Virus record (IMG/VR): IMGVR_UViG_3300021066_000001
DNA length: 64,000 nt
Reading direction: 5' to 3' (one strand)
Origin: a virus
Lineage: Duplodnaviria; Heunggongvirae; Uroviricota; Caudoviricetes
The notes below the pieces were generated by a model. That model had not been told where the DNA came from and did not search any database. It was given only the letters and a program-made list of their open reading frames with translations. Below, piece by piece: positions 1 to 47,461 of the stretch (position 1 is its first letter; every line of letters starts with the position of its first letter). Position numbers and translations under genes: made by a program.

Positions 1-571
1 TCGGATCCTTGAACATCGTGATCGGTGCGCCGGCGACGACGAACATCGCGTCGGCCTTGCCGGTCTTGAGCCCGTTCAGGCCGTCGACCTGGCTCGCGGT
101 CAGCTCTTGCCACTTCGCGCCGGTCAGCTCCTTGAACACCTGGGTGGTGACGTACGTCGCCGAGCCTTGCGGGCCCTCGACGACGCGCTTTCCGGCGAGG
201 TCGGCGACGGACTTGGCCGGCGACTTCTCGGGAACAGCGACGTGGATCTCGGTCGAGAAGAAGGGAAAGACCATCTTGATCTTGTCCATCGTCGCCTTGT
301 CCTGGCCAGACATGAAGACCGCGGTGTCGATCGGAACGACGCCGAACTGAACGTCAGGCCGGCTCTTCACGGCGTAGATGTTCTCCTCGCCGCCGGCGGT
401 CTGGACGTTCTTGATCGAGAGGGTCGGACCGCTACAGGCGCGAACGATGTCTTGGACCATCGGGTAGTTGGTGCCGGTCGGCGGGCCCGAGGCGATGCCG
501 ATGGTGGACTGTTGGGCCAGCGCGGCGGTCGCGAGGGCCATCGAGGAGCAGATGACGAGGATGCGTTTCAT
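1..571 (-). CDS. Periplasmic solute-binding protein, partial (N-terminal 190 aa; runs off window start); TAXI/TRAP-like or PhnD-like SBP
   Basis: Not in ORF track (edge-truncated). Minus-strand translation MKRILVICSSMALATAALAQQSTIGIASGPPTGTNYPMVQDIV...GEENIYAVKSRPDVQFGVVPIDTAVF resembles TAXI-family SBPs (signal peptide, GxxxGxYY-like N-terminus). GGAGG SD 8 nt upstream; ATG at 571 overlaps stop of upstream gene (ATGA). Confidence 0.5.
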   Translation of the reverse strand, partial: MKRILVICSSMALATAALAQQSTIGIASGPPTGTNYPMVQDIVRACSGPTLSIKNVQTAGGEENIYAVKSRPDVQFGVVPIDTAVFMSGQDKATMDKIKMVFPFFSTEIHVAVPEKSPAKSVADLAGKRVVEGPQGSATYVTTQVFKELTGAKWQELTASQVDGLNGLKTGKADAMFVVAGAPITMFKDP

Positions 572-864
572 TTCTTGGCCTCCAGGAGCTTGCTCATCCC
601 AGCCGAGCTGGGACGGTTGACGGGTTGAGGGTCCGCGGCAGGGGGAGCTTGGACCGGCGCAGGTGCGGCCGGCTGAGCGACAGGCGCCGGCTGCGGCTTC
701 GGCGCCTCGATCGTTTGCACGACCGCTGGTTGCTGGGCAGCTTCTTGCACGACGGCGGTGGTCGACTTGAACGCGCCGCGCTCGTGAAGCTCCTTGAGAG
801 CGTATCCGGCGCCGCCCGCCACCGCGAGGATGAGCAAGAACTTCGGCAAGGGTTTTAGTTTCAT
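568..864 (-). CDS. Secreted/membrane-anchored Pro/Ala-rich protein
   Basis: ORF track; N-terminal signal/TM (KFLLILAVAGGAGYAL), PAPV-rich low complexity. Confidence 0.5.
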   Translation of the reverse strand: MKLKPLPKFLLILAVAGGAGYALKELHERGAFKSTTAVVQEAAQQPAVVQTIEAPKPQPAPVAQPAAPAPVQAPPAADPQPVNRPSSAGMSKLLEAKK

Positions 865-887
865 GTGGCCTCACTTATCATGGAATG

Positions 888-917
888 ATTAGAACATACC
901 TCAACGAGAGAGTAAAC
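888..917 (-). promoter_or_regulatory. sigma70/T4-early-like promoter, -35 GTTTAC / 18-nt spacer / -10 TCTAAT
   Basis: minus-strand GTTTAC at 917..912, TCTAAT at 893..888, upstream of the ATG at 864. Confidence 0.35.
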
Positions 918-1021
918 TCACTCTTGATCTCTTTTTGCGGCCTGGCGCAAGCTTCGCCGCCAGAGACGGGTCAGGAACATTCGCCACAACAGCTTGATCG
1001 GATTTCGCGTGCCGTAAATGC

Positions 1022-1687
1022 TCACTTGAACGCCTGCCAAAGCCCGGTACCCACCGAACCGCCGCAAAGCGCCGTCTTGAAGCCTGCCTCTAGTAAGAGG
1101 GCGTAGAGATTCTCTGGACTGATCCACTTAAAATGGGTGACGTGCGGCGGCAGGCCGTCACGAGCTTGCACGTGGTATACCGTGTCGCCGACGAGGTAGG
1201 ATACCTCCACGAAGTTGTGACCGTCGAGCGTGTATTCACGCACCTTCGGAGCACGCGGCGGCGCGACGTTGAACGTGTTGAAGGCGAAGACGCCCCCGGG
1301 CGCGAGCACCGCGTACACGTCCCGCGCGGTCTCGGGAGTCAGCCAATAGTTGATCCCCTGTTGGCACGCGACGACGTCGTACGGCACGTCGTGCACCCAC
1401 CACCGACGCAAGACGTGCTCTACCTGGTCGTGGAAGATGCGGTTGGCGCGGTTGCATGCCCAGAGCGCGGTCCGTGCCTCGGCGGTGAGCATGTCGGGCT
1501 CGTCGTCGACGTAGGACACCCGCGCGGCTCCCGCGTTGATCGCGTGCAGGGAGAGGCGCCCGCCTCCGCCGCAGAGGTCAAGCACGTGCTTACCTTCTAG
1601 CACAACGCCCTCTAGCAGCTCGGCCGGCGTCCGCTTGAAGAAGCGCTGGTAGAGCTGCTCGTAGACCTCGTGGATGGGGTAACGCAT
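1022..1687 (-). CDS. Class I SAM-dependent methyltransferase
   Basis: VLDLCGGGGRLSLHA (motif I GxGxG), acidic residue after beta2 (YVDDEPDM). Confidence 0.7.
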   Translation of the reverse strand: MRYPIHEVYEQLYQRFFKRTPAELLEGVVLEGKHVLDLCGGGGRLSLHAINAGAARVSYVDDEPDMLTAEARTALWACNRANRIFHDQVEHVLRRWWVHDVPYDVVACQQGINYWLTPETARDVYAVLAPGGVFAFNTFNVAPPRAPKVREYTLDGHNFVEVSYLVGDTVYHVQARDGLPPHVTHFKWISPENLYALLLEAGFKTALCGGSVGTGLWQAFK

Positions 1688-2775
1688 CAGTACTTGATCA
1701 GGAAGGCGCCGTGGCCCTCGATGTTGAAGATGTCTTCTTGAGGAATCACTCGCTCGGCATCGCGCACGGTGCCCGCTGGGGCGTAGGGAAGAGTGGGTGC
1801 TCCAGGCACTTGACGGTGCCAGTGGATGATCGATTGACAGGTCGTTTTCTTGAAGATCATGTCGAGGAGCGGGGCGTTGAGGGTCGCTTTCCGCCCCTCG
1901 GTGATCACCTCACGAAACGTGTGATCGACGACCTTCACGTAGACCCGGTCATCGAGCTCATTCTTGCCGCGCCCGGTGGTCAGAAAGCTGCCGTTGATTC
2001 CACGCACCGCGATCGTGCCGAAGACGTAGCCCTCAGGAGTCGTCTCGAACATCTTCTCGTGAGAGCGCACCTCGCTCTCGAATCGCTTGAACATCAACGC
2101 CCAGATCGGATTTGCCGTTGAGCGGGGTGCCTCTTGATCGACCGTCGTCGTGTAGTACTTGTCGGCGGCGCACTCGAGGATGAACTTCTTGAGGTCACCG
2201 GCCTTGCGATCTAGCACCCCGCGCTCGCGGGTGACGATCAGCTTCCGAGAGAGATCGTTCGTGTCGTTCGCAAAGACGGCCGTCGCCTTAGCCTCGAGGA
2301 CGATCCCGTACGCGGCAGAGATGAGCTCCTCCTCTTGAACGTTCGTCAACAGCTTGAACGCGAAGAGCTTTGTCCACGGAGCCGCCTTCTTGACCTCGTC
2401 GACGATCCGAGGAGCGATCGTGAAGTTGATCGGGATGACGTCTCCGGGCTTGTAGTTGTGGCTCGGAAACTTCGTCGTCATCTCGACAGCCGGAATCAGG
2501 TTAGCGACGGCGGCGCCGAGCACGACGGCGTCGAAGTCCTTGGCCATCTTCGTCACCAGGTCTAGATAGTCGTGGATGCCGCGGTGGGTGATGATCCGCA
2601 GGTCGACCGATCCGGTCGGAAGCTCAGCTCCCTTCGCCGTGAGATAGGTGACCTCGGCGTGGTAGCTCAGCTCCTCAGCGAGTTCGGCCATCAATCCGCC
2701 TCTGAACCGGTTCGTGATGATCTTGACCGGGTCGAGGTGAGCGTGGACCGGACCGCCGGTGACGAGGATTCTCAT
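1687..2775 (-). CDS. CoaB-like (phosphopantothenate-cysteine ligase / DFP family) domain fused to a C-terminal domain of unknown function
   Basis: Start trimmed to the internal ATG (MRILVTGGPVHAHLDPVKIITN...), abutting the next gene's stop. Matches E. coli Dfp CoaB domain blocks: ITAGPTREPxDPVR, CAAVADY ~ GAAVANL, ICANDV ~ VFANDT. Confidence 0.6.
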   Translation of the reverse strand: MRILVTGGPVHAHLDPVKIITNRFRGGLMAELAEELSYHAEVTYLTAKGAELPTGSVDLRIITHRGIHDYLDLVTKMAKDFDAVVLGAAVANLIPAVEMTTKFPSHNYKPGDVIPINFTIAPRIVDEVKKAAPWTKLFAFKLLTNVQEEELISAAYGIVLEAKATAVFANDTNDLSRKLIVTRERGVLDRKAGDLKKFILECAADKYYTTTVDQEAPRSTANPIWALMFKRFESEVRSHEKMFETTPEGYVFGTIAVRGINGSFLTTGRGKNELDDRVYVKVVDHTFREVITEGRKATLNAPLLDMIFKKTTCQSIIHWHRQVPGAPTLPYAPAGTVRDAERVIPQEDIFNIEGHGAFLIKY

Positions 2776-3338
2776 TAGCTGTCTTCGCTCTTGTCTTGCC
2801 TGTTCCAGAGGTTGAGACACTTGCGGGCTCGCCTCGCCCACTCCCTCGGCGTCATGTCGAAGTTGGCGTCGCCGAAGAGGATCAGCGCGTTGTCCTTGGG
2901 GACACCGAAGATGATGCCGAGGTTGCGGAAGGGATCGTCCTCCACAAAGCATTGGAGGCTGGGGTTGAGCTGCTCGTCGAACTCCAGGCTGACGTTGCCG
3001 TCACCCTCCAGCTTCAGCTCGAGACCGAGCTTCCGAAAGTAAGGGAGCACAGCGGCGTGGCCAGCCGCGCAGGCGGTCGTTCCGCAGCGCCCGATGTGGC
3101 ACTCCGACAGCGTGTCGCCCGGGACGAGACCCATCTTCTCGGCCTTCGCCTGCCGCGAGGTGACGGTTCGGCCAGGAATCGTGGCCCAGTAGGCCATGTT
3201 GAAGTGCTTGCCTCGCTCGGGCGGCAGCTTCTCCATGTGCTCGATGAGCTTCTTCAGCCGCTTGTCTCCGAAATGTTCTGTGAAGTTCAAGTGCGATCTC
3301 CGTGGATTGTAACAATTAATGTAGATGTAACTTTGCAT
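2775..3338 (-). CDS. Hypothetical protein, KHFNM...CGTxACAxG family (paralog of 40105..40605)
   Basis: Shares the KHFNM-x-W...CGT(T/S)ACA(A/L)G(H/F)AAV.P.F..LGLE motif with the ORF at 40105..40605. Confidence 0.6.
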   Translation of the reverse strand: MQSYIYINCYNPRRSHLNFTEHFGDKRLKKLIEHMEKLPPERGKHFNMAYWATIPGRTVTSRQAKAEKMGLVPGDTLSECHIGRCGTTACAAGHAAVLPYFRKLGLELKLEGDGNVSLEFDEQLNPSLQCFVEDDPFRNLGIIFGVPKDNALILFGDANFDMTPREWARRARKCLNLWNRQDKSEDS

Positions 3339-3608
3339 CTATGAAGAGACGATGAACCTGAGGGTTTTCACGTTGGCCGGAATCTTGTCTAGGTCGACCT
3401 CGAACCCCGACTCCCAGTCTCCGTGGTAGTCACGTGTAGGGACCTCGACCTCCAGGCCCGACGGATCTGGATCTTGCCCACCGAAGAACTCTGAGACGCT
3501 CTCAGGCACTTCGACATTTGCCTTCTTGCAAGCGTCCCAGACCTCCTTCATCTCTCTCCACTTTTCGTCAGGCGGCACAAATCCCATCACGTGCAAAGAT
3601 AAGCTCAT
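3339..3608 (-). CDS. Hypothetical protein (89 aa)
   Basis: ORF track, start trimmed to the internal ATG that overlaps the stop of the ABC ATPase. Confidence 0.4.
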   Translation of the reverse strand: MSLSLHVMGFVPPDEKWREMKEVWDACKKANVEVPESVSEFFGGQDPDPSGLEVEVPTRDYHGDWESGFEVDLDKIPANVKTLRFIVSS

Positions 3609-4447
3609 CAGATGCTCCCGAAGAGACCCTTGATCTCGCGGACCGTGGGCCAGAAGTTGGGGTGAGCGGTAACGTCGCTCGTCCAAGCGAGACCTCGAGC
3701 GATCAGGTCATACTCCTTGACGAGGTACGCGCCAGGAACGAAGTCGCCCTTGTCGTCACGATCACGCCCCAGGACCCAGATCGTGTCGGCGATCGCGACC
3801 GCTTGCTCGATGTCGTGGGTGGTGACGATGATCGTGTTGTACTCGTTCTGCTGGGAGACCTGGAGCACGAGCTTAGCCGCGATCTCCTTGTTGATCGGGT
3901 CGAGCCCCGAGAAGGGCTCGTCCATCAAGATGTAGAAGCTGCTGCACAGCACCTGCTGGATGATCGCGACCCGCTGGCGCATCCCGCCTGAGATCTGAGA
4001 CGGGTAGAGATTCTTGGTGTGGGTCAGGCCGAACTTCTCCATCAGTTCGACGACGTCCTCATCGGACTTCTGGTGGCGACCAGCCGCTAGCTTTAGGTTG
4101 CTCCAGATCGTTCGGTGCTTGAGAAGCGGGTAGCTCTGAAAGACGACGCCGACGTCTCCGGCCTGGGGCTCCTTGTAGGTAGCCGCAGCCTTGTCGCTGC
4201 CGGGGTTCACGCGGTAGCTGATCTTGCCAGACGTCGAGCGCTGAAGCCCGGCCAGACACTTGAAGAGCTGAGTCTTGCCGACGCCCGACGGTCCGAGCAG
4301 CGCAACGACCTGTCCCTGCGTCAGCCCGGGCCGCTTGATGTTGTCGACCTTGAGGTTGACGTCTCGGAGGATCACCTTGGGTCCGTACGAGAGGCCTAGC
4401 CCCTCGACGGTAAGCAAGCGGCTGCCGAGAGAGAAGTCGCGACTCAC
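3608..4447 (-). CDS. ABC transporter ATP-binding protein (SsuB/TauB/NrtD-like family)
   Basis: Walker A GPSGVGKT, signature LSGGMRQRVAI, Walker B ILMDEPFSGLD, H-loop TTHD. Confidence 0.85.
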   Translation of the reverse strand: MSRDFSLGSRLLTVEGLGLSYGPKVILRDVNLKVDNIKRPGLTQGQVVALLGPSGVGKTQLFKCLAGLQRSTSGKISYRVNPGSDKAAATYKEPQAGDVGVVFQSYPLLKHRTIWSNLKLAAGRHQKSDEDVVELMEKFGLTHTKNLYPSQISGGMRQRVAIIQQVLCSSFYILMDEPFSGLDPINKEIAAKLVLQVSQQNEYNTIIVTTHDIEQAVAIADTIWVLGRDRDDKGDFVPGAYLVKEYDLIARGLAWTSDVTAHPNFWPTVREIKGLFGSI

Positions 4448-4746
4448 GACGCCCTCGAGCTGCCCTTGCAGATCACCGCACGTTGTCCAGTTAAGCCAGA
4501 ATGCGGAATCACCTTCGCGATCGCTCGCCGAAGCTCCTCAAGATCGGCTCGATCCTTCTCTAGCTCCATCACGTGGGAGGCGACGCGGCTGATCATCGTC
4601 GCCTTGAAGACCTGCGCGGTCATCTGACCAGGCTTCTTCTCGTACCCCTTCTCGAGGTCGAAGCAAGAGAGCAGAGAGTAGAGCTGCTCGATCGTGAGGT
4701 ACGAGAGCACCTCGGTGAAGATGTCACGCTGCTTTAGATCCATCAC
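4444..4746 (-). CDS. Hypothetical protein
   Basis: ORF track; 4-nt overlaps with neighbours. Confidence 0.4.
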   Translation of the reverse strand: MMDLKQRDIFTEVLSYLTIEQLYSLLSCFDLEKGYEKKPGQMTAQVFKATMISRVASHVMELEKDRADLEELRRAIAKVIPHSGLTGQRAVICKGSSRAS

Positions 4747-5051
4747 GGCCTCCTGAGGTTAAACATGCGAACGGTGTACCAGATCGCGAGCGGCCAGTAG
4801 ATCCAGCCAAACAGCACGCAAACGAAAAGCTCACCGGGGTGATACTTCTTGTCGACCGTCGCCAGAGCCGCCCAGCTGAGAAGTCCAGCCCCAAAGATGT
4901 AATAGCAGATGGGGGCGAAGTGGTCGTCTGGCGCGGCGATGAACCAGGGATGATGCTTGAAGGTCCCGAGAATCACGGCCGCGACGATGATCGCGACGAC
5001 CACCCCCAAGATCACCATGACCTCAAACTTGTCGCGAGGGCGGGCTTTCAT
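4743..5051 (-). CDS. Small integral membrane protein
   Basis: Start trimmed to the ATG overlapping the permease stop (ATGA); three hydrophobic segments. Confidence 0.45.
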   Translation of the reverse strand: MKARPRDKFEVMVILGVVVAIIVAAVILGTFKHHPWFIAAPDDHFAPICYYIFGAGLLSWAALATVDKKYHPGELFVCVLFGWIYWPLAIWYTVRMFNLRRP

Positions 5052-5827
5052 CGAGCGCTCGTCAACGCGACGTAGGGGCAGATGATGTTGCGAATCCACC
5101 TCAGCGCGTAGTCCTGGAGAATTCCGTAGACCAAGATGGTTAATTGTATCGCAAAGATCGCGTCGAGATTTAGGTGCTTGCTCATGTTCATCAGCAACGC
5201 TCCGATCCCGCCCTCATACCTGACGAGCCCCTCCACCATCGAGAGGAGAGTCCACCCGATCGCGGCGTTTTGCCTGATCAGGTCGAACGCTTCATCCATG
5301 CGGCCACGCACGACCACCTCGAAGGTGGCGCGCCACCCCGAGAGCCCGAGGGTCTTCGCGTAGTCGATCTCCTCCTGCGTCACGCTGTCGATGATCGCGA
5401 GCATGTTAGTCAGCAAGAAGGCGGTCATCCCGAAGGTCAAGAGCCAGATCTTGAGCGCGGCGCCGTCGGACGTCCACAGGGTGAAGAAGAAGGTGATGCC
5501 CGCGAAGCCGAGAAATCTCAGCGAGGTCATCCACCTGATGATCGGCTTGAAGGCGGGCGCGGTGTAGAGCACACCCAGGCCGAGCGTGATCGCCGACGCG
5601 TAGAAGATCGCCGACGCGATCGTGACGGAGCTCTTCCAGAGCTCGACGAGCATCCCCTGGGTCGTCGCTAGCATCTCCCAGGCTTGCAAGATCTCTAGCG
5701 GGTTTGGGATGAGCTTGTACGGCGAGATGAACCAGAGAACGAGCAAGATGATCGCTTGCCCGATCGCTAGGATCTTGAGTGACCCGACCGGCTCAAACGG
5801 AACTACGTAGCTCTTCAACGATCCCAC
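5048..5827 (-). CDS. ABC transporter permease (SsuC/TauC-type inner-membrane component)
   Basis: Multiple TM helices; EAA-like loop region (...DYAKTLGLSGWRATFEVVVRG...). Confidence 0.75.
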   Translation of the reverse strand: MGSLKSYVVPFEPVGSLKILAIGQAIILLVLWFISPYKLIPNPLEILQAWEMLATTQGMLVELWKSSVTIASAIFYASAITLGLGVLYTAPAFKPIIRWMTSLRFLGFAGITFFFTLWTSDGAALKIWLLTFGMTAFLLTNMLAIIDSVTQEEIDYAKTLGLSGWRATFEVVVRGRMDEAFDLIRQNAAIGWTLLSMVEGLVRYEGGIGALLMNMSKHLNLDAIFAIQLTILVYGILQDYALRWIRNIICPYVALTSAR

Positions 5828-5912
5828 TCGACGCCTCCGTCGTTAGTTTGGGCGAGCACCTTGGGTTCGAACCAAGATCTTACGAGCCAACTCCCTCGTG
5901 CTCGCTTACGTC

Positions 5913-7697
5913 TTAGTTCGCGCGGAGGATAACCTCGACGCGACGGTTCCTCGAGCGCCCGGCGGCGCTCGCGTTGCTCTCCACCGGCATGTCCTGGCCG
6001 TAGCCGCGGGTGGCGATCCGGCTCTCCGGGAAGGCCTCGCGCGAGTTCGTCATCAGGAAGTTCTTCACCGCGTCCGCGCGCTCCTTCGAGAGCGATTGGT
6101 TGCGGGTCGGGTCACCGGTGCTGTCGGTATGTCCGTTGATCTGGACCGACATCCCCGAGACCGCTACCTGGTTGAGGAGCTCGTCCAGCACCGTCGCTGC
6201 CCTCTCGTTGAAGGTCGCCTTGCCGCTGTCGAATTCGATCGTCCAGGCGCGTTTGGCGACGACGTCACCGCGGGCCGCGTCACGGTAGACCGGCAGATCG
6301 GCCTTCGCCATTCGGGTCACCTTGCTGGCGACGCTCTCGATGTACTTCGAGGTCACCACCTGGTTGTAGGGCACCAGGCGCGGCAGCTCGGACGGGTAGA
6401 AGCGGTTGTCCATCTCGCCGAAGACGGTGTAGACGCGCTTGTAGATGTCGTCCTTGCCGCCGACGCCGAAGAGGTGGACGTTGTCCGCGAGGCCGATCGT
6501 GGTCGATCCGCCCAGCTGAACGCCGTACATCTCCTTGCCCTTGAAGTACGTCTTCCAGTAGGCGCCGTCCTCCTCCTTGAAGACCTTGGCGGCGGTCTCG
6601 GCGGCCTGGGTCAGCGCGACGTCGTTCGAGCGGACCAGCTCGCCGCCCTCCCAGGCTGCCGAGAGCATGCCCTCGACGAAGCGGGAGTTCTGCGCCATCC
6701 ACTGCTTGTTCCCGATCACGATCGACGGCATCATCATCGCGTACTCCCTCGTCGACGCGACGGAGGCGATGCCGGCGCAGGCGAGGCGCTTCTCGTTGCA
6801 CTTGGTGACGACGTTGACGTCGCCCGGCGTCCAGGTCGCGGTCCCGTTCTGGCAGGCCTTGACCGTCTTGCCGGTCTTCTTTCCGTTGTTCACCTCGGGT
6901 CGGTTCTCGCAGTAGCCGTTGATCAACTTCTCGTCGGCCTCGGTGAAGGCGCTGACCGAGACGAAGTTCATCGCGTTCGGGTCATACGTCTTCTCGTCCG
7001 GGTTGACCGGGATGCCGTTGTCACCCGCCCACTTCATGCAGATGTGAACGTCGCCGTCGCGGAGAACGCCGCCGATCAGCGAGCCGCGCGCCTTTTGCGG
7101 GTCGGCCTTGACGGCCGCCGGCAGCATGCACTTGTCCTCGCCGCGGGAGAAGCCGATCGCGCCGACCACCTGGATCTCCTGGCCGAGCTTGTTCAGCACC
7201 TGCTGGGCGCCGTACGCGAAGCCGGGCAGGGCGTCACCCATGATGACGGCGAACGCCGCTCCTCGGTTCGGCACCGCGACGCCCTTGGAGACGTCCTCGG
7301 CGAAGGCGACCAGCTCGGCGGTGATCTTGCCGTAGTCGTCCTCGCGCTGCACGTCGAGCTTGACCCCGGCCTTGGCCATCAGGCTGTTCGGAGCCGTTGA
7401 CGGGCCGCCGTTCGCGTACATCAGGCCCAGCGTCCCGTTCCAGGGAATCGTCAGGAACTTCACCCGGATGTCGCTGTTCCCGGCCGGCGCGAGCGCCACC
7501 TGGGTGACCTGCGCTCCTGCGCTCGGGGCCGGGGCGCCGAGGTTGCCTGACGGCAGGTCGACGCGAGTCGGCACGCTCGACGCGACGGTGGGTTTGGTGT
7601 TGAAATAACCGCGTTGGTCCGCATAGTTGTAGCCGAAGTAGGCTGCGATTGCCACGACGGCCACGACCAGGGCTTTGCCTCCAGCTTTCAATTGCAT
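5913..7697 (-). CDS. ABC-type substrate-binding protein (NMT1/SsuA/TauA-like) fused to a C-terminal OmpA/MotB peptidoglycan-binding domain
   Basis: N-terminal signal/TM; C-terminal OmpA_C hallmark TIEFDSGKATF...VQINGHTDSTGDPTRNQSLSKERADAVKNFL...RRVEVIL. Confidence 0.7.
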   Translation of the reverse strand: MQLKAGGKALVVAVVAIAAYFGYNYADQRGYFNTKPTVASSVPTRVDLPSGNLGAPAPSAGAQVTQVALAPAGNSDIRVKFLTIPWNGTLGLMYANGGPSTAPNSLMAKAGVKLDVQREDDYGKITAELVAFAEDVSKGVAVPNRGAAFAVIMGDALPGFAYGAQQVLNKLGQEIQVVGAIGFSRGEDKCMLPAAVKADPQKARGSLIGGVLRDGDVHICMKWAGDNGIPVNPDEKTYDPNAMNFVSVSAFTEADEKLINGYCENRPEVNNGKKTGKTVKACQNGTATWTPGDVNVVTKCNEKRLACAGIASVASTREYAMMMPSIVIGNKQWMAQNSRFVEGMLSAAWEGGELVRSNDVALTQAAETAAKVFKEEDGAYWKTYFKGKEMYGVQLGGSTTIGLADNVHLFGVGGKDDIYKRVYTVFGEMDNRFYPSELPRLVPYNQVVTSKYIESVASKVTRMAKADLPVYRDAARGDVVAKRAWTIEFDSGKATFNERAATVLDELLNQVAVSGMSVQINGHTDSTGDPTRNQSLSKERADAVKNFLMTNSREAFPESRIATRGYGQDMPVESNASAAGRSRNRRVEVILRAN

Positions 7698-7728
7698 GGT
7701 TAAAGCTCCCGTTGGTGGTTTGAAAGAG

Positions 7729-8838
7729 TTACTTCTTTGCTCTACCAGAGCCGAAGAACTGGTCCTGGTAGTCTCCGCCGCTCACGGAGACCGCCTCGTC
7801 GGCGGCGATCCGGGTCGGCAGGGATTCGGTGACGTGGTGCTCGATGAGGAGACGCTTCTCGCCGCCAAGCAGCAGCGAGTCGGTCTGGTTCTCGAACTTC
7901 GCCAGCTTCTCGAGCGCTTCGGCTTGCCACACGCCGTTTTGCAGGTCGATGCCCTCGAGGACGCCGCGCGTCGAGTCCATGAAGTCTTCGATCTCGCCGA
8001 GCTTCTTGCCGTACTCGGCGGCGGTGTACTCCATCGCCTGCTCGAACAGCTCGTACTCGTCGCCTGAGCCGCGGAGAATCGCCATCGCCTTCGACATCGC
8101 CTTGTGCGACGCCCTGATCATGTCGCGCTCTTGCTCCCTGACGCTCACCTCGTTCTTGATCTCGGTGATCGCGTTGGCCGACGCGATCTCATACTTGATC
8201 AGCGCCTTGTAGAGCATCTGCATCTTCGACAGCGCACCCTCGAGCCGCTTGTTGAGGGCGGTCAGCCGGCCGTGCTGGTTGCTGTTGATGCCCATCTGCG
8301 ACTTGGCGGAGAGGACGGCCTCCTGGTCGCCGCGCGCCTCGGCCTTGAGCCCCATCTCTCGAGCCGCCGCGACCATCTTGAGAGCCTTTGCGGCCTCGTC
8401 CTGGTTTTTCTGGATCTTCTGTTCGGCGATCGAGATCTGCCCCTTGAGGGCCGACTTGCTCTCCCGGAGCTCGGTGAGCTTCTCGTTGAGGGTCGAGATG
8501 TACCCCTTCATGATCCCGATCGGGTCGATCTCGACGAACCACTGGGTGATCCACCGCATCACGCTCTTGAAGCCGTAGTTGACCAGCAACCACACCTTCC
8601 GGTTGGTGACGAAGAGCGCCAGGAGCGCGAGGCCGACGGCCGAGATCGTCGCGGCGATCGCCGCGTTGAAGAGCGCCGCGAGGTTGTTGAACATCGTGAT
8701 GAAGATCGGCGAGATGACGTTGAAGCCCATCGCGACGCCGAGTGCGATGAGGGCGATGACGATCATGCCGGTGGTGCCTTCTGGCTTGCTCCAGAAGGAC
8801 TTCGGCTTGAAGTCGCTGGGGACGGACGTGGGTAGCAT
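7729..8838 (-). CDS. Membrane-anchored PspA/IM30 (phage-shock protein A)-like coiled-coil protein
   Basis: Two N-terminal TM helices followed by ~250 aa of heptad-rich sequence resembling PspA/Vipp1 (LIQEMED.LVE-like block MRWITQWFVEIDPIGIMKGYISTLNEKL...). Confidence 0.45.
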   Translation of the reverse strand: MLPTSVPSDFKPKSFWSKPEGTTGMIVIALIALGVAMGFNVISPIFITMFNNLAALFNAAIAATISAVGLALLALFVTNRKVWLLVNYGFKSVMRWITQWFVEIDPIGIMKGYISTLNEKLTELRESKSALKGQISIAEQKIQKNQDEAAKALKMVAAAREMGLKAEARGDQEAVLSAKSQMGINSNQHGRLTALNKRLEGALSKMQMLYKALIKYEIASANAITEIKNEVSVREQERDMIRASHKAMSKAMAILRGSGDEYELFEQAMEYTAAEYGKKLGEIEDFMDSTRGVLEGIDLQNGVWQAEALEKLAKFENQTDSLLLGGEKRLLIEHHVTESLPTRIAADEAVSVSGGDYQDQFFGSGRAKK

Positions 8839-8860
8839 CGGTTTGCCTCCGGGTTGGTGA

Positions 8861-9574
8861 TTAGGTGAGGAGAGCCGAGAGGCTCGCCTTCTCGCCCTCG
8901 AGCTCGCTCTTGACGTGCTCGACGGTCAGCTCGAAGCGAGCCGCGACAGCGCGGATCTCGGCTTCGGCGGCGTCGGCCTCGGCGCTGAGCTCGTTGATCT
9001 TGGCCGCGCTCTCACTGATCTGGTTCTCGAGCGACATGATCTCGCCGCGCAGCTGCTCGATGCGCTTCAGGGATGTCTCGTTGGCGGCCTTGAGCCTCGT
9101 CGCTTCGGTGCGAGAGGTCCCCGACTTGGCCGCGATCTCGCTCTCGGTCTTGGCGGTGAACCTGCGCGCCTCTGCGACGAGGTCCATCAGGTGGATGTCG
9201 ATCGCCTTGACGATGTCCGACGACGAGCGTTGGCTCGTGGCGAAGGCCGCCTTGATGCGCGTTGACTTGTCGGGGATGACGTTGACCAGGAGGTTGGACT
9301 TTTCCTGGAGATCGGTGTAAGCCGAGGCGCGCTTCGCGATCATCTTTTGAAGCGCTTCATACATCTCCGGGTCGTAACCGACCGCGACGCGGGCGGGAGC
9401 GGTACCTCCGGGGGCGGTTGCGACTGGCTTCGTCGGCGCCGGCTTGGGCGCTTGCTTGTCATCGGGAAGCTCGACGAGCACGCCGGCCGCGGCCCGTCCG
9501 AGTGACTTCAAACCACCGAAGAAGCCAGAGTTGTCATCGGCCATGTGAGCTTGTTTCTCCTTTCGCGCTCGCAC
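8861..9574 (-). CDS. Coiled-coil protein, unknown function
   Basis: ORF track; Ala/Glu-rich heptad composition. Confidence 0.5.
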   Translation of the reverse strand: MRARKEKQAHMADDNSGFFGGLKSLGRAAAGVLVELPDDKQAPKPAPTKPVATAPGGTAPARVAVGYDPEMYEALQKMIAKRASAYTDLQEKSNLLVNVIPDKSTRIKAAFATSQRSSSDIVKAIDIHLMDLVAEARRFTAKTESEIAAKSGTSRTEATRLKAANETSLKRIEQLRGEIMSLENQISESAAKINELSAEADAAEAEIRAVAARFELTVEHVKSELEGEKASLSALLT

Positions 9575-9612
9575 TTTGGTGAAGGCAGCGAGCTTTCCTC
9601 AAGTTCTAGGAA

Positions 9613-9642
9613 GTTATATCATCTTTCCAAGAACAAGTAAAC
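9613..9642 (-). promoter_or_regulatory. T4-early-like promoter GTTTAC-N18-TATAAC
   Basis: minus strand GTTTAC 9642..9637, TATAAC 9618..9613, ~38 nt ahead of the ATG at 9574. Confidence 0.4.
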
Positions 9643-9663
9643 TCACATGGCACAAATTTTAGC

Positions 9664-10548
9664 TTAGACCGCCACCTCAAGCTTCACGAACGGATGAGAT
9701 CTGTATCCGACGATGTCGAAGTCCTCGGGCTTGTAGCCGTCGATGTCAGTGTTGTCGGTCAAGATGTCTAGACCGGTCGGACAGTCGATCGGTGCTCTGT
9801 CAGGAGAGCTTAAGATCTCCCTCATCTTCTCGACGTGGTTGAGATAGATGTGGGCGTCGCCGTAGTTGATCTTGAGATGCCGCGGCTTCAAGCTGGTCGC
9901 TCGAGCGAGGAGATGAGTGAGCAATGCGTACTGCGCGATGTTGAACGGGCCGCCCAGGCAAGTGTCCCACGACCGGATCGCCATCATCAGGTCGAGGTGA
10001 CCGTCGTTCGAGACGTAGCACTGGAAGTCACGATGACAGGGCGGCAGCCCCATCTTCTCGACGTAGGCCGGGTTCCACGCGGACACGATCAAGCGACGAT
10101 CACGAGGTCTCGTCTTGATGCGCTCGATCAAGTTCTTGATCTGGTCGATCGGCGGCTCGAAGACGACCGTGCGACCAGGCTCACGCGTCAGGATCGAGTG
10201 GTGCTTGAACCGGTCCTCGCCGAACGCCTCGTAAGCTGCACCCGGCCAACGACGCCACTGCACGCCGTAAACCGGACCCAAACTTCCGTCTGGCTTCGCC
10301 CATTGATCCCAGATATGAACGCCGTGGTCATGCAGGTACTTGATGTTAGGCTCGCCGCGGAGAAACCAGAGCATCTCGATGAACGCATGCTTCCACAGCG
10401 TCTTCTTGATCGTGACGAGCGGAAAGCGCTGACGAAGATCGAAGGAGAGTTGGCCGCCGAAGATCGAGAGAGTGCCGACTCCGGTACGATCCTCGCGGCG
10501 CTCTCCCTCGGAGAGAATCTTGTTGAGCAAGTCTACGTATTGTTTCAC
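9664..10548 (-). CDS. thyA: Thymidylate synthase (ThyA family; dUMP hydroxymethylase cannot be excluded)
   Basis: RRLIVSAWNP, LPPCH catalytic Cys, FQCYV, GGPFNIAQYALL (Asn = uracil-type specificity), GDAHIY; ~30-aa C-terminal extension. Confidence 0.85.
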   Translation of the reverse strand: MKQYVDLLNKILSEGERREDRTGVGTLSIFGGQLSFDLRQRFPLVTIKKTLWKHAFIEMLWFLRGEPNIKYLHDHGVHIWDQWAKPDGSLGPVYGVQWRRWPGAAYEAFGEDRFKHHSILTREPGRTVVFEPPIDQIKNLIERIKTRPRDRRLIVSAWNPAYVEKMGLPPCHRDFQCYVSNDGHLDLMMAIRSWDTCLGGPFNIAQYALLTHLLARATSLKPRHLKINYGDAHIYLNHVEKMREILSSPDRAPIDCPTGLDILTDNTDIDGYKPEDFDIVGYRSHPFVKLEVAV

Positions 10549-11171
10549 GGACGCCTCTTGAAGGTAAGGTATGGGGTCACCGCCCCGGTGTGAAAGAAGA
10601 CCTCATACTCGGGGATGTCTTCACCGACGTTGAGGAGATCAAACTGATCTGAGTAAACAGTCGCTTCGAACTTGAGGCTCGCGTAGTCATACTCGACCTT
10701 CATCGGAATCGCGTGCTGCCAGAGAAGTCGAACCATCCCCGGACTGTGGTCGAGCACACCTCGGTCGTAGCTGATCTTGCCGTAGCGACGATCTAATTTT
10801 TGCGTTGATTGAGCTGCTTGAGCCTGCAAGTGTCCGCCGGTGCTCGTGCTAGTGATGATCAAGCTTGGATTGGCGGTCGTGCTCGTAGAACCGCTAGCTC
10901 CAGATGAGCCTCCGCCCGCTGCCCCGGTGATGATCGATCCGTTGGCCGACGAGCCGCCAGAGCCCCCGGCCGCTGCGCTGTAGTTGTAGATGATGATCTG
11001 ACTCGGCGACAGCGTCGCGCTTCCCACGATGGTGACGGCAGGATTCACGTCGGTGGCAACGAACTCGGCCTTGTCCTCGGCTGGAGTCGCAGCTTGAGGC
11101 TGGCTCTGGTCGCCAAAGACGTCTCGCCGCATCGCGTCGATCTCGACGAGGAGCTCCGAGAGTGACGCCAT
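10545..11171 (-). CDS. Hypothetical Gly/Ser-rich protein
   Basis: ORF track, start trimmed to the ATG abutting the upstream stop; low-complexity GGSGGSS middle. Confidence 0.4.
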   Translation of the reverse strand: MASLSELLVEIDAMRRDVFGDQSQPQAATPAEDKAEFVATDVNPAVTIVGSATLSPSQIIIYNYSAAAGGSGGSSANGSIITGAAGGGSSGASGSTSTTANPSLIITSTSTGGHLQAQAAQSTQKLDRRYGKISYDRGVLDHSPGMVRLLWQHAIPMKVEYDYASLKFEATVYSDQFDLLNVGEDIPEYEVFFHTGAVTPYLTFKRRP

Positions 11172-12812: not shown

Positions 12813-14162
12813 TTACTTCGAGTCGAACTCGATGAGGTAGCGCGGCCGCGCTTGCGACAGGCGGTAGACGATCATCTCGTTATTCATCACGCCCGACTTT
12901 TTGGCTTGAGCGTACATCGAGTCGTAGCCGCTGGGCAGCCGGCCAGTCGGGTTGCTGGGCGTGTAGTAGTTGCCCATCGCGACGTCGAAGAGGAACATGA
13001 AGCAGTTGGAGTCGCGGCGGCCGCCGTCCCAGTAGCCGTAGCTGTAGTTGAGGGATTTGGTCGACTGGTCGCTGAAGTAGAGGCCGTCGCCGAACATGCG
13101 GCCGGTGATGTTGATCGAGCCGCCGCTGCGCGGAATGATCAGGCCCGACTTCAGGATCGACAGCACGTTGAAGACGCGCGTGCCGTGCCAGAGGGTCCAG
13201 TTGTTCTTCGCCGCCTGGGCGACCGGGTCATTCTCGAACGCCTTGGAGGCGCCCGGCAGGTCGACCTCGAAGAAGCGCACCGGCTTGAGGTGACGCGACT
13301 CGTGGATGTTGTTCGCGCTCTCGCGGAACATCTTGATGATGCGATCGATCATCTTGCCGTCCGTGAGGACCTTGATCTCGGAGTCGAAGACGTTCGGCAT
13401 GTCGGCGATCGACTTGTCGGCCGCGATCGCGCTCTTCGCCCTAGACTCGGCGAGGTCGGCCGAAGCTTCCATCTGGTCCAGCATCGTGTTCTGGCGCTGG
13501 AGGGCGTTCATGTCGGGGATGAAGGCGCGGTGCCAGCCGCGCGAGTGGCCGACCTTTTGCGGCACCTTGCGGAGATAGGCGCCCAGCTTGTTCATGAAGG
13601 CAGGGTTGTCGAAGTCACCGCGCTGGACGTAGACCGCGAGGTCCTGGAGGATCGTGCGAGCGTCGATGATCGAAACCTTGCCGATCACGCCGACGGCCGA
13701 CGAGATCACGCCCGTCTTCAGGTCGATGTCGATCATGCCACCGGACGAGGCGATCAGCTCATGCTTGTTCGCCTTGACGAGCCGCTCGACGAGGTCATGG
13801 AGAACAGGGTCAGCGGCCTTGACGAGCTGTGACTTGGCCGCCTCGACCAGGACGACCTGGCTCTTGACCGGACCGGTGGGCCCGGTCGGTTGGCGCTCAG
13901 CGATGACGTTGACGATCTCGTAGCCCTTGAGGAGCTTCTCGGCGATCTTGCCGGCGAGGTTGAGTTGCTTCGGGGGCTCGACGTTCAGCGTGTCACGGCC
14001 GACGCGGCCGTACTTGACGATGATGCCGGCGGGGTCCTTGACGAACTCCCAGACCTTGTTATTGTTGTTCTCGGGGTCAGTGCAGACGAACTTTGCGGTG
14101 TCGAGCTGTGCGTATTGTGCGGCGAGCTTTTTTGCGGCTTCTTTATCGAGTTGGACGACCAT
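12813..14162 (-). CDS. PARP-family ADP-ribosyltransferase with N-terminal WGR domain
   Basis: WGR-like KVWEF...KYGRVG; catalytic H-Y-E signature: TLWHGT (His-Gly-Thr), GRMFGDGLYFSDQSTKSLNYSY (Tyr), NEMIVY...YLIEF (Glu). T4-late-like TATAAATAG 53 nt upstream. Confidence 0.7.
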   Translation of the reverse strand: MVVQLDKEAAKKLAAQYAQLDTAKFVCTDPENNNNKVWEFVKDPAGIIVKYGRVGRDTLNVEPPKQLNLAGKIAEKLLKGYEIVNVIAERQPTGPTGPVKSQVVLVEAAKSQLVKAADPVLHDLVERLVKANKHELIASSGGMIDIDLKTGVISSAVGVIGKVSIIDARTILQDLAVYVQRGDFDNPAFMNKLGAYLRKVPQKVGHSRGWHRAFIPDMNALQRQNTMLDQMEASADLAESRAKSAIAADKSIADMPNVFDSEIKVLTDGKMIDRIIKMFRESANNIHESRHLKPVRFFEVDLPGASKAFENDPVAQAAKNNWTLWHGTRVFNVLSILKSGLIIPRSGGSINITGRMFGDGLYFSDQSTKSLNYSYGYWDGGRRDSNCFMFLFDVAMGNYYTPSNPTGRLPSGYDSMYAQAKKSGVMNNEMIVYRLSQARPRYLIEFDSK

Positions 14163-31516: not shown

Positions 31517-32380
31517 TCACTTCGAGATCTGGATCGGCGTCGCGGCGCCGTTAACGATCACGCATGAGGCCTTGTCGCGGCACGCGGCCGCGAAGATCTT
31601 CGCCTTCTCTAGCTCGATGAACTGGGTGGTGTCCATCCGCATCGCCTCGCGGTAAGCGTTGTCGGCCTTGGCGCGCGAGGCCTCGGCGGCGCTCCGAGCG
31701 TCCTCGGCCTTCTTGCGCTCGTCCTCGGACTTTTTGCGCTGCTGTTGAGCGGCGGTCCGATCCATCTCGTCGACGACCGGCTGGTTCGGACGTCCGCGGC
31801 CGATGCTCATGTCGCGAATCGTCACCTTGAGTCCCGACTCAGCGATCACCTTCGCGAAGGTCTCGCGAACGCTCCGTTCCATCTCGTCGCTGGTCTTGTT
31901 ATCGGTCATCAAGGGGGTCATCTGGTACCTCTTCGCCTCGTTGCGAACGATCGTCCGGTATGGCTCCTTGAGGTTGTGGTCGTACCACTTCGTCCAGCCG
32001 AACTTTTGGACGTTGTACGCCGCATCATGCCACTGGAGGACGATGTAGGTATTGAAGTCAAGGAAGTTGTTGTCCGCGGTCACCAGATCGTCTAACGGCT
32101 CGTCGTACCGAATCGGCGTCGTCTCGACGTTCAGGCCAACGGTTGAGAACCAGTACCAACCTGTGCCAGGCTGCTGCGTCTGGGTGCGCGCGCCACCCTG
32201 GCCGCCGAACCACGGCTTGTCGATCAATACCGTCTCGTGCCCCGGCGGGGTCTCGATCCGGTGCCACCCGAACTTGCTCAGCCAGATGAGGATCGAGAGG
32301 ACGATCAGCACGTGCAGAAAGATCTTTCCGACGTGCAGGTGGAAGTTGTCGCGCTCGTCGTAGCTGTAATACTTGAACAT
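31517..32380 (-). CDS. SPFH/band-7 (prohibitin/stomatin-like) domain membrane protein
   Basis: N-terminal TM helix, central band-7-like region, Ala/Glu/Lys-rich coiled-coil tail. Confidence 0.55.
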   Translation of the reverse strand: MFKYYSYDERDNFHLHVGKIFLHVLIVLSILIWLSKFGWHRIETPPGHETVLIDKPWFGGQGGARTQTQQPGTGWYWFSTVGLNVETTPIRYDEPLDDLVTADNNFLDFNTYIVLQWHDAAYNVQKFGWTKWYDHNLKEPYRTIVRNEAKRYQMTPLMTDNKTSDEMERSVRETFAKVIAESGLKVTIRDMSIGRGRPNQPVVDEMDRTAAQQQRKKSEDERKKAEDARSAAEASRAKADNAYREAMRMDTTQFIELEKAKIFAAACRDKASCVIVNGAATPIQISK

Positions 32381-46161: not shown

Positions 46162-46604
46162 AGGCCAGATTGATAGATGAGCTTGATCTTGAGGAACTTT
46201 TCGATCTCTTCCCAGTTTTCAGCCTGGGTGCAGGGTTCAGCGATCAGCTGCTTGAAGTTTCTAAGCGCATCGTCGTCCGTCCAGCGATTCTTGATGAACG
46301 TCTTGTCGGCCAGGTCATAGATGATCGACGCCGAGTACTTCCCCTTCAGCGGGATCCTCCACGCGAAGTCATTCCCGGGACTCACCCTCCGTCCAACCTC
46401 GATGATAAAGTTTTCGTTCTTGCCTGACCTCGTGAACGCCGGACCGAATGACAAAAACATGAAATGGTGATCCGGGCGCATCTCTCTGATGTGGGGCCAA
46501 TCGAAGTCGTCAGGCGGAGTGGGAGCTACGATGTGTCCAGCTCGCTTGAACACCTCATAGAGCTCATCGCTCAAAGCTCGATCACCTGCCCCTTCTGCGC
46601 CCAA
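46158..46604 (-). CDS. Hypothetical protein
   Basis: ORF track. Confidence 0.45.
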   Translation of the reverse strand: MGAEGAGDRALSDELYEVFKRAGHIVAPTPPDDFDWPHIREMRPDHHFMFLSFGPAFTRSGKNENFIIEVGRRVSPGNDFAWRIPLKGKYSASIIYDLADKTFIKNRWTDDDALRNFKQLIAEPCTQAENWEEIEKFLKIKLIYQSGL

Positions 46605-47461
46605 CCCTTGAAGCCGTCAGCAACGGCGTCGGCCTTCGGTCCAAACTGATAGTGGTAGAGCCACATCTTCGCCTTCGTCTCGGCGGGAAGCGTCTTGAGC
46701 TGGTCGTAGTGCGCGTGAACCCGTGACTTGAAGGGAGTCGTCTCGCAGTCGTGGAGAATCAGATCGGCCGCGTTGTAAAAGTCGACGATCTGCTCGGGAT
46801 TGAACTGGGTGTCCGACGTCCAGAAGACGTTCTTGCCGTTCGCCTTGAACTCGAGCCCGAACGACGGCATGATGCGATTGTCCGACATGATGTGAACGAC
46901 CTGGATCAGCTTCATGTTCAGGCCGCACCAGCTGAACTGTCCCTTCTTGCCGACGCGCTGCAAATTGAAGTAGGTGTCGAGGTCAGCCGCCTCTCCCTGC
47001 TTGGAGTCCATGCCGCCGGACAGCGACTTGCTCCAGAGCTCGTACGCGAGGGAGCGATCGATGATCAGGTTGGGCTTCGGCTTTCCGGCAAAGTGGGTCA
47101 TGAAGCCGATGTACTCCATGCCGCCGACGTGATCGGCGTGCGGGTGGCTGATGTAGACGTCGTTGATGTCCCACGCCGTTAGGCCTTGCTCGCCGAGCGA
47201 GAAACGGACGTCGCCTCCGGCGTCCCAGAGCATGCGCCGCGTGCCGAGGGTCGGGTGCGTGGCGGTCAAGACGAGGTTGCTCTGCCAGTTGCTGGTGCGG
47301 CCGGCCTTGAGAGCCTCGATGTCGGTGTAGAACGCCGCGCCAGTGCCGAGAAACTGGATCTGGTACTTGTAGCCGAGATTGAGATCCTTGAGATCTCCGA
47401 TCTTGAAGCTGATCGTCTTGTCGAGATCGATCGTTTGGTCGAGCTTTTCGGTGCTTTCCAT
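46571..47461 (-). CDS. Metallo-beta-lactamase-fold hydrolase (RNase Z/ElaC-like; candidate Apyc1-type cyclic-nucleotide phosphodiesterase)
   Basis: FLGTGAA, HPHADHVGG (HxHxDH), downstream His/Asp ligands. Confidence 0.6.
   Translation of the reverse strand: MESTEKLDQTIDLDKTISFKIGDLKDLNLGYKYQIQFLGTGAAFYTDIEALKAGRTSNWQSNLVLTATHPTLGTRRMLWDAGGDVRFSLGEQGLTAWDINDVYISHPHADHVGGMEYIGFMTHFAGKPKPNLIIDRSLAYELWSKSLSGGMDSKQGEAADLDTYFNLQRVGKKGQFSWCGLNMKLIQVVHIMSDNRIMPSFGLEFKANGKNVFWTSDTQFNPEQIVDFYNAADLILHDCETTPFKSRVHAHYDQLKTLPAETKAKMWLYHYQFGPKADAVADGFKGWAQKGQVIEL

Follow-up and report, generated by a model that had tools for sequence, protein, structure and literature searches.

A 64,000-nucleotide stretch of tailed-phage DNA (IMG/VR record IMGVR_UViG_3300021066_000001, Caudoviricetes; hereafter the window) carries near its first nucleotide, on the minus strand, genes for a substrate-binding protein (SBP) fused to an OmpA-like domain, an ATP-binding cassette (ABC) permease and an ABC ATPase, preceded by two genes for a coiled-coil and a membrane protein, named here ccA and ccB (Table 1). 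A preliminary description made from the sequence had recognized the SBP-OmpA protein, the permease and the ATPase, and their coordinates, strand and domains (OmpA, BPD_transp_1 and ABC_tran) are confirmed here. Its outline of the operon held for this core; it missed ccA and ccB upstream, and it took in a methyltransferase, a CoaB-like fusion and small open reading frames (ORFs) that are not part of the conserved unit. The window comes from ENA contig ERZ27257322 k141_1025171 (395,674 bp; locus label L005), where the locus occupies positions 22,704-44,488 and an L005 coordinate equals 17698 minus the window coordinate. ORF positions were checked by comparing a mechanical ORF list with independent gene calls on the source contig, and the two agree. 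With few exceptions, the genes of the window are small, tightly spaced and encoded on a single strand, and the run of eight genes that begins with the permease and ends with the methyltransferase has members that touch or overlap by 1-4 nt, in line with the small coupled ORFs reported earlier.

The conserved module

The conserved unit is ccA-ccB-SBP/OmpA-permease-ATPase, as the gene order in Undibacterium and in the phage and bacterial loci establishes. On a 1.04 Mb contig of Undibacterium sp. TS12, genes for proteins of 238, 353, 596 (OmpA), 266 and 284 (ABC_tran) amino acids (aa) follow one another collinearly with the window, with identities of 27% for ccA, 37% for ccB, approximately 51% for SBP-OmpA, 48% for the permease and 49% for the ATPase. 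When one genome was scanned for each GTDB species, SBP-OmpA turned up in 499 species genomes. Taxonomy and gene pattern were taken from the best 80 of these 499 loci, which belong mainly to Burkholderiales (Massilia, Undibacterium, Vitreoscilla, Polaromonas, Collimonas and Caballeronia) and Bacteroidota (Hymenobacter, Emticicia, Fibrella, Chitinophaga and Saprospiraceae), and most of which have the same five-gene size pattern. At two Burkholderiales chromosomal loci (L002 4894..7906 and L008 13453..15857) the module adjoins genes for a histidine kinase (KdpD-like or DUF4118) and an OmpR-type regulator, and kdpFABC is missing from the neighboring genes of both. This two-component system is a candidate dedicated regulator of the module, and the neighborhood is compatible with an osmotic or envelope-stress role.

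Scanning IMG/VR gave 67 viral contigs, many of them 100-578 kb long. The SBP-OmpA, permease and ATPase genes stand in order in 60 of the 67 loci, and the remaining seven are cut by contig or locus ends. ORFs of approximately 215-250 aa and 330-390 aa lie 5' of the SBP gene in most viral loci, where profile hidden Markov models detected ccA (58/67) and ccB (44/67). In the most distant phage clade the upstream ORF matches ccB (hhalign, 93.8% probability, E=1.8e-7), and the module genes of the huge phage LR756500 (462 kb) are arranged in the same way. ccA and ccB are kept with the transporter across phyla and in phage clades as distant as 30% identity. Complete ABC importers have been held to be almost unknown in phages, and the preliminary description called them uncommon phage cargo, yet the complete ordered module is present in at least 60 IMG/VR contigs. 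Nor does the SBP-OmpA architecture prove as unusual as first thought, since it has more than 2,700 database relatives besides these bacterial and viral occurrences and is mentioned in a comparative genomics study (PMC11237479). The persistence of the module, together with its conserved motifs, suggests a recurrent function of huge phages that has been overlooked.

Small genes are found at two junctions of the module in phages. In 13 distant phage loci (within L048-L075) a conserved ORF of approximately 142-167 aa separates the SBP and permease genes, a Band-7/SPFH gene lies between permease and ATPase in L011-L013 (L011 12248..13102; L013 12319..13131), and conserved inserts of other kinds are found at the permease/ATPase junction of further phage clades. 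Both junctions appear to be hot spots of small-gene insertion in phages and not in bacteria.

Importer components

The OmpA domain of the SBP-OmpA protein scores 68.3 bits in Pfam (cut-off 27.2, residues 489-585), and its PDB matches include TagL, OmpA, YiaD and OprF. Within a set of 138 non-redundant phage and bacterial sequences, D525 and R540 of this domain are 99% conserved; we take these to be the diaminopimelate-contacting Asp and Arg of OmpA-like domains, and the domain should bind peptidoglycan. Residues ~78-460 gave no sequence match in Pfam, NCBIfam or PDB, and when the full-length alignment was used for a PDB profile search, OmpA domains dominated the matches. An AlphaFold model built with 28 homologues (mean predicted local distance difference test, pLDDT, 82.9; block means mostly 80-98 over residues ~78-460) places an N-terminal helix at residues 5-28, followed by a disordered linker, a two-lobed alpha/beta domain and the OmpA domain. 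Foldseek matched the large domain to TauA (6ssy, E=3e-10, TM-score 0.75 on target) and CmpA (2i49, TM-score 0.64 on target and 0.45 on query), as well as to NrtA, SsuA, ThiY and Thi5. Given the model and these matches the description of an SBP fused to OmpA holds, and residues ~78-460 are predicted to have the binding-protein fold of NMT1/TauA/NrtA class II.

A homologue search with the SBP domain returned 2,792 proteins (E<=0.001), and among the best 120 nearly all are approximately 590 aa long with a C-terminal OmpA domain. The JGI annotation of the family is "OmpA-OmpF porin", a label that conceals a transporter in phage annotations. PADLOC returned generic MotB/ZorB (OmpA domain) and ABC-ATPase matches only, with no defense-system assignment. 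Invariant residues of the binding domain in the same 138 sequences are W86, R118, D120, M153-G-D155, S184, G186-E-D188, D214-G-D216, N227, N232, D239, N244, T288-W-T-P-G-D293, S315, T316, W381 and G396-G397, a set dominated by Asp, Glu, Asn and Trp. Residues of this kind would fit a metal-assisted site, or a ligand that is cationic or polyhydroxylated, and do not point to a plain oxyanion.

The permease has several hydrophobic segments and its best NCBIfam matches are TauC and SsuC, with SaoP also among the nearest named families. In the translated ATPase all motifs are intact (Walker A GPSGVGKT, Q-loop, signature ISGGMRQR, Walker B ILMDEP and H-loop TTHD), and NCBIfam matches are to sulfate, taurine, nitrate and phosphonate families. 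Neither protein reaches the NCBIfam equivalog level (permease: TauC 29.2 vs cut-off 342 and SsuC 22.4 vs 347; ATPase: TauB 108.4 vs 357 and NtrCD 100.9 vs 291.8). The locus encodes a complete SBP, permease and ATPase set of the TauABC/SsuABC/NrtABC structural class, as had been proposed and as the domain scores and Foldseek matches bear out. Because there is one permease gene and one ATPase gene, as in TauABC, SsuABC and NrtABCD-CmpABCD importers, homodimers of each would be implied by analogy.

These family matches could be read as a plain nutrient set of auxiliary metabolic genes (AMGs) that imports sulfonate/taurine, nitrate/nitrite or bicarbonate and has ccA and ccB as unrelated neighbors; a substrate of the sulfonate, nitrate or bicarbonate class had been suggested in the preliminary description. 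The best named matches of the permease, the families matched by the ATPase and an SBP fold closest to TauA, CmpA, NrtA and SsuA all agree with this. However, the equivalog scores fall far under their cut-offs, ccA and ccB are co-conserved with the transporter, and invariant Asp, Glu, Asn and Trp residues are unexpected for a simple oxyanion site, although they could belong to a CmpA-like Ca2+/bicarbonate site; the neighbors in L002 and L008 are two-component system genes and not genes of sulfur or nitrogen assimilation. A nutrient importer of this kind is unlikely.

Upstream proteins

In the family alignment, ccA starts with a short conserved motif, continues with a Pro-rich linker and ends in a part that is helical and coiled-coil. 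The model of ccB predicts a hydrophobic helical hairpin (residues ~19-86), a long helical hairpin (residues 106-255, pLDDT 89-97) and more helices after it. Eight of its 10 best Foldseek matches are Vipp1 or CHMP1B, with PspA and CHMP3 lower (best E=1.9e-3), and CdvB2 is also among the best structural or profile matches. The ccB family profile has CHMP3 as its best PDB match (E=0.034), and PspA_IM30 (PF04012) is the most frequent Pfam family among ccB relatives, matched in 8 of 28 (best E=3.8e-4); the window ccB itself has no PF04012 or PF03357 match at E<=1. Independent but individually weak, these signals from profiles and the model make ccB a probable member of the PspA/Vipp1/ESCRT-III superfamily.

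The anchoring of the SBP at both ends, by an N-terminal helix and by an OmpA domain with invariant peptidoglycan-contact residues, and its close association with a PspA/ESCRT-III-like protein and in some phages an SPFH protein, also lend themselves to a different account. By analogy with FtsEX, the ATPase and permease would drive conformational work in an envelope tether or remodeling device serving superinfection exclusion, lysis timing or protection from membrane-targeting abortive-infection defenses, and the Apyc1-family protein elsewhere in the window would be fitting anti-defense cargo. The permease, though, belongs to the classical family of binding-protein-dependent importers, and the complete two-lobed SBP fold with its strongly conserved polar and aromatic residues suggests a real ligand. 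We know of no mechanotransducing system with a permease of the BPD_transp_1 type, and consider a device that tethers but does not import quite unlikely.

Insertions and accessory genes

Six unrelated ORFs (the 102-, 99-, 89- and 187-aa ORFs, the CoaB-like fusion and the methyltransferase) are insertions particular to this phage and have no counterpart in any other fetched locus. The methyltransferase and the CoaB-like fusion had both been named in the preliminary description and both are present, the former of class I. The fusion scores 60.6 bits with Pfam DFP (cut-off 22) and stays below the NCBIfam equivalog cut-offs (81.8 vs 265 and 75.4 vs 217); its best PDB match is the uncharacterized protein 2gk4, and a full-length homologue with 48% identity is encoded by the huge phage LR745208. 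Together with the CoaE-CoaD fusion farther upstream it would make up a partial phage-encoded coenzyme A (CoA) pathway.

These two genes raise the question whether the importer takes up a CoA precursor (pantothenate, pantetheine, beta-alanine or a cysteamine-like compound) for use by CoA enzymes of the phage. One related phage locus, L006, has CoaE directly upstream of ccA and a CoaD-like gene approximately 5 kb downstream, and small amino-sulfonates are bound by TauA-class proteins. The association is sporadic, however: CoaD lies near the cassette in three loci only, CoaE or DFP in none of the other viral loci, no CoA genes are found near the bacterial cassettes, and the DFP gene itself belongs to the set of insertions that only this phage has. 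A role in CoA supply is distinctly improbable.

The gene cut by the window edge had been described as a second, TAXI-like binding protein, and in its full length, taken from L005, it scores 110 bits with TIGR02122, above the cut-off of 84.35, and 83.5 bits with PF16868. No TRAP membrane subunit was found among the called genes of L005, L006 and L007 or the large window ORFs scanned. The adjoining 98-aa protein is 38-42% identical to the N-termini of SBP-OmpA in L008 and L011 (tblastn), and related phages have an ORF of 100-108 aa at its position. In the closest phage sub-clade (L006-L019, L022 and L063, not L020) the ~100-aa and TAXI genes directly follow the ATPase, and in this phage the insertions separate the pair from it. 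While the second binding protein stands, it is not a random one downstream of the importer: the TAXI protein and its ~100-aa neighbor are a conserved add-on of one phage sub-clade. The pair of anchor peptide and TAXI protein resembles a split analogue of a tethered binding protein.

Genomic setting and origin

The cassette is an internal part of a jumbo-phage genome. It lies at 22-44 kb within the 395.7 kb contig, with phage-type, same-strand, tightly packed genes on both sides. Upstream in the window are genes for a T4-type topoisomerase II, an RnlA-type RNA ligase, PARP, the thymidylate synthase ThyA, NAMPT and an anti-Pycsar protein; downstream on the contig are small same-strand ORFs and an acyltransferase. 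The topoisomerase has its best identity (47-48%) to Xanthomonas, Ralstonia and Stenotrophomonas jumbo-phage proteins, and the window also encodes a MazG/PRA-PH-like pyrophosphohydrolase. A 360 kb IMG/VR phage contig (L010) has RnlA, PARP, PRA-PH and ThyA upstream of the same cassette, and a 32.7 kb Logan contig with the same protein (L007) shares this arrangement. L007 also encodes an AAA protein 7 kb downstream, for which neither the window nor the other loci have a homologue. The G+C content is even over the region (0.58-0.65), a tRNA scan found none, no integrase was seen among the ORFs scanned, and a promoter and terminator scan of positions 1..10700 gave background level only.

The segment might instead be host chromosome beside a prophage end, or a chimeric assembly. 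The closest bacterial homologues of SBP-OmpA (54%, in a Pseudomonadota metagenome-assembled genome (MAG), with a Massilia MAG equally close) are as similar as the closest phage homologue (53%), and some IMG/VR matches resemble host DNA; L033, with 87% identity to Hymenobacter norwichensis, is one that may come from a host. Against this stand the position of the cassette deep in a contig with phage-type genes on both sides, the same neighbors in L010 and L007 and the uniform G+C content, as well as the lack of tRNA and integrase in the scans above; the absence of any match for positions 1..9000 in 50,697 phage records (megablast) is counted with these. A host or chimeric origin is very unlikely, and the importer is phage-borne as first described.

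Phage and bacterial sequences intermix across the family (L032, for example, is 68% identical to a Chitinophaga protein), which suggests several exchanges between phages and bacteria. Five GTDB MAG contigs with the cassette (L103, L107, L109, L110 and L121) were assigned to Acinetobacter, Lloydbacteria, Paceibacterota and Patescibacteria but probably represent phage DNA placed in the wrong bins; the phage-type TAXI neighbor is also found in L107, L109 and L121, and L103 reaches 84% identity with phage contigs of IMG/VR. A betaproteobacterial host is suggested, by inference only, by a G+C content of approximately 59% and by the Burkholderiales affinity of the nearest bacterial relatives.

Several other genes of the window are listed in Table 1. 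The Apyc1-family protein is likely an anti-defense nuclease acting on cyclic nucleotides. The M3 peptidase is unusual phage cargo, the NAMPT and NadR-like genes form an NAD+ salvage pair of a kind known from large phages, and the collagen-repeat gene is among the very few plus-strand genes of the window.

Table 1. Features of the window, with the module in gene order first (coordinates are window positions)
Coordinates	Strand	Product	Remarks
8861..9544	-	ccA, 227-aa coiled-coil protein	First gene of the five-gene module; gene call
7729..8838	-	ccB, 369-aa inner-membrane protein with two transmembrane segments	Probably a divergent PspA/Vipp1/ESCRT-III-superfamily domain
5913..7697	-	SBP-OmpA, 594 aa	Transmembrane anchor, linker, predicted TauA/NrtA/CmpA-type fold ~78-460, OmpA-like domain 479-592
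5048..5827	-	ABC type-I importer permease, 259 aa	BPD_transp_1 (PF00528) 28.6 bits, cut-off 26.4, marginal
3608..4447	-	ABC ATPase, 279 aa	ABC_tran (PF00005) 91.9 bits, cut-off 25
4743..5051	-	Small membrane ORF, 102 aa	Between permease and ATPase; start overlaps permease stop by 4 nt
4444..4743	-	Soluble ORF, 99 aa	Between permease and ATPase
3339..3608	-	89-aa ORF	Phage-specific insertion
2775..3338	-	187-aa ORF	Phage-specific insertion; weak match to phrog_889
1687..2775	-	CoaB/DFP-like fusion, 362 aa	Domain in N-terminal half only; C-terminal half of ~185 aa without assignment
1022..1687	-	Class I S-adenosylmethionine-dependent methyltransferase, 221 aa	Outside the conserved module
568..864	-	98-aa protein	Anchor-like N-terminal segment, Pro/Ala-rich tail; stop overlaps TAXI start by 4 nt
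1..571	-	TAXI binding protein, N-terminal 190 of 314 aa	Signal-peptide-like start; cut by window edge
12813..14162	-	PARP catalytic-domain protein, 449 aa	90.7 bits; conserved beside the cassette region in related phage L007/L010
21762..22811	-	CoaE-CoaD fusion (dephospho-CoA kinase and pantetheine-phosphate adenylyltransferase), 349 aa	Above both NCBIfam cut-offs
31517..32380	-	Band-7/SPFH membrane-scaffold protein	36-38% identical to SPFH proteins of phage cassettes
43006..45731	-	NAMPT and NadR-like NMN adenylyltransferase/Nudix protein	Adjacent genes
46571..47461	-	Apyc1-family anti-Pycsar protein, metallo-beta-lactamase fold	70.4 bits, cut-off 50
55882..58032	+	Collagen-repeat tail-fiber-like protein	Local G+C peak 0.68, AT skew reversed
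60586..62610	-	Peptidase family M3, 674 aa, oligopeptidase A/thimet-like	301 bits

Interpretation

The reading we favor, with a probability of roughly 55%, is that the cassette is a phage-carried, envelope-spanning importer module whose PspA-like partner helps to sustain the host envelope. It builds on the gene content, domain classes, intact motifs, synteny and distribution reported above; we infer the direction of import, that ccA and ccB are physically coupled to the transporter, what it carries and how the phage gains from it. Early or midway through infection the phage would place the machine in the host inner membrane, with ccA as a cytoplasmic coiled-coil protein and ccB as an inner-membrane protein whose PspA-like part would face the cytoplasm. 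The SBP would be held between inner membrane and cell wall by its N-terminal transmembrane helix and its C-terminal OmpA-like domain, where the tethered binding domain would capture a small solute and hand it to the permease dimer for ATP-driven import. ccB and its putative coiled-coil partner ccA might stabilize or reshape the same membrane patch from the cytoplasmic face, and the net effect would be a host envelope, turgor and energy state kept intact through a long jumbo-phage infection.

Several points weigh against this account. ccA has no assignable family, and Pfam, PDB profile searches and hhalign against ccB gave coiled-coil noise only and no PspA signal. No experimental characterization of any family member was found in the literature, and shared conservation of the order of genes is no proof that their products form a complex. 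No AAA+ ATPase like that of the published operon type lies in the cassette or within 10 kb of it on the contig. Phage and bacterial sequences intermix, and a few of the contigs classed as viral may be host DNA.

A bolder extension, which we hold only tentatively and think improbable as it stands, is that many huge phages carry an ESCRT-III/PspA-based membrane machine wired to a wall-anchored ABC transporter, with which they would remodel, repair or compartmentalize the host inner membrane. Its purposes might then include surviving membrane-piercing abortive-infection defenses or early holin leakage, or building membrane structures, and a specific solute, envelope-derived or osmoprotective, would be supplied or sensed through the transporter. 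Were this the case, it would be a phage-encoded membrane-homeostasis system of a kind for which no description was found in the literature searched, and a first functional handle on the bacterial five-gene module of hundreds of species.

On the favored reading of an importer with a membrane-maintaining partner, the constant and probably PspA/ESCRT-III-type partner would tie infection to membrane maintenance from the side of the phage and not through a host stress response. The same module is present in hundreds of bacterial species genomes, among which Massilia, Undibacterium, Collimonas, Hymenobacter and Chitinophaga are tractable hosts.

Comparison with known systems

The closest published counterpart is a group of bacterial operons noted in a comparative genomics study, which join PspA, a transmembrane-anchored Snf7 protein, a PBPb+OmpA protein, a permease and an ABC ATPase (PMC11237479). 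The example OGG56892.1 from Candidatus Handelsmanbacteria runs PspA, SIG+PBPB+OmpA, TM permease, ABC-ATPase, SIG+TM+Snf7 and AAA+; its authors propose a link between membrane remodeling and solute transport, and also tie PspA to Band-7/SPFH proteins, with no mention of phages (PMC11237479). Compared by description, the two have in common an SBP-OmpA fusion, a permease, an ABC ATPase, a membrane-anchored ESCRT-III-superfamily protein (for ccB, a probable one) and a further helical protein. They differ in gene order, the transmembrane-anchored PspA-like gene here lying upstream of the SBP gene, in the lack here of an AAA+ protein and of a ccA recognizable as PspA, in the location of this module on phage genomes, and in the TAXI gene appended in one sub-clade. 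Literature searches for the module in phages found no description, and it is, as far as we found, a phage-borne variant of a barely characterized module noted computationally in bacteria and apparently unreported in phages.

With TauABC, SsuABC and NrtABCD-CmpABCD the module shares a predicted binding-protein fold, and its permease and ATPase are nearest to those families. Unlike in these importers, the binding protein is approximately 100 aa larger than TauA, has a transmembrane anchor and carries an OmpA domain; membership does not extend to the sequence level, and the invariants are acidic and aromatic. Like PspA, Vipp1 (IM30) and ESCRT-III proteins, ccB is predicted to form a long alpha-helical hairpin followed by further helices. 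In contrast to them it would have a hydrophobic two-helix hairpin in place of the N-terminal amphipathic helix, its signal is under the family thresholds, and the module is without PspBC/PspF or a Vps4-type partner.

Among phages, roc5 of ammonia-oxidizing bacteria encodes a carbohydrate-type SBP, a permease and an ATPase, and its authors know of no complete ABC transporter described earlier in a phage; "OmpA-OmpF porins" are listed in two cultured phages of ammonia oxidizers, rip1 and roc2, in the same preprint (bioRxiv 10.64898/2026.05.02.722434). JGI uses that label for the present SBP-OmpA family. This claim of a first complete transporter implies that the present module has apparently gone unnoticed. 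The roc5 cassette and the pstS-type AMGs, which are single binding proteins, resemble it in placing ABC transport components on a phage genome, and roc5 is likewise a full set. The module described here differs from roc5 in belonging to another ABC family, in its peptidoglycan anchor and its probable PspA-like link, and in being conserved over many huge-phage lineages rather than a one-off.

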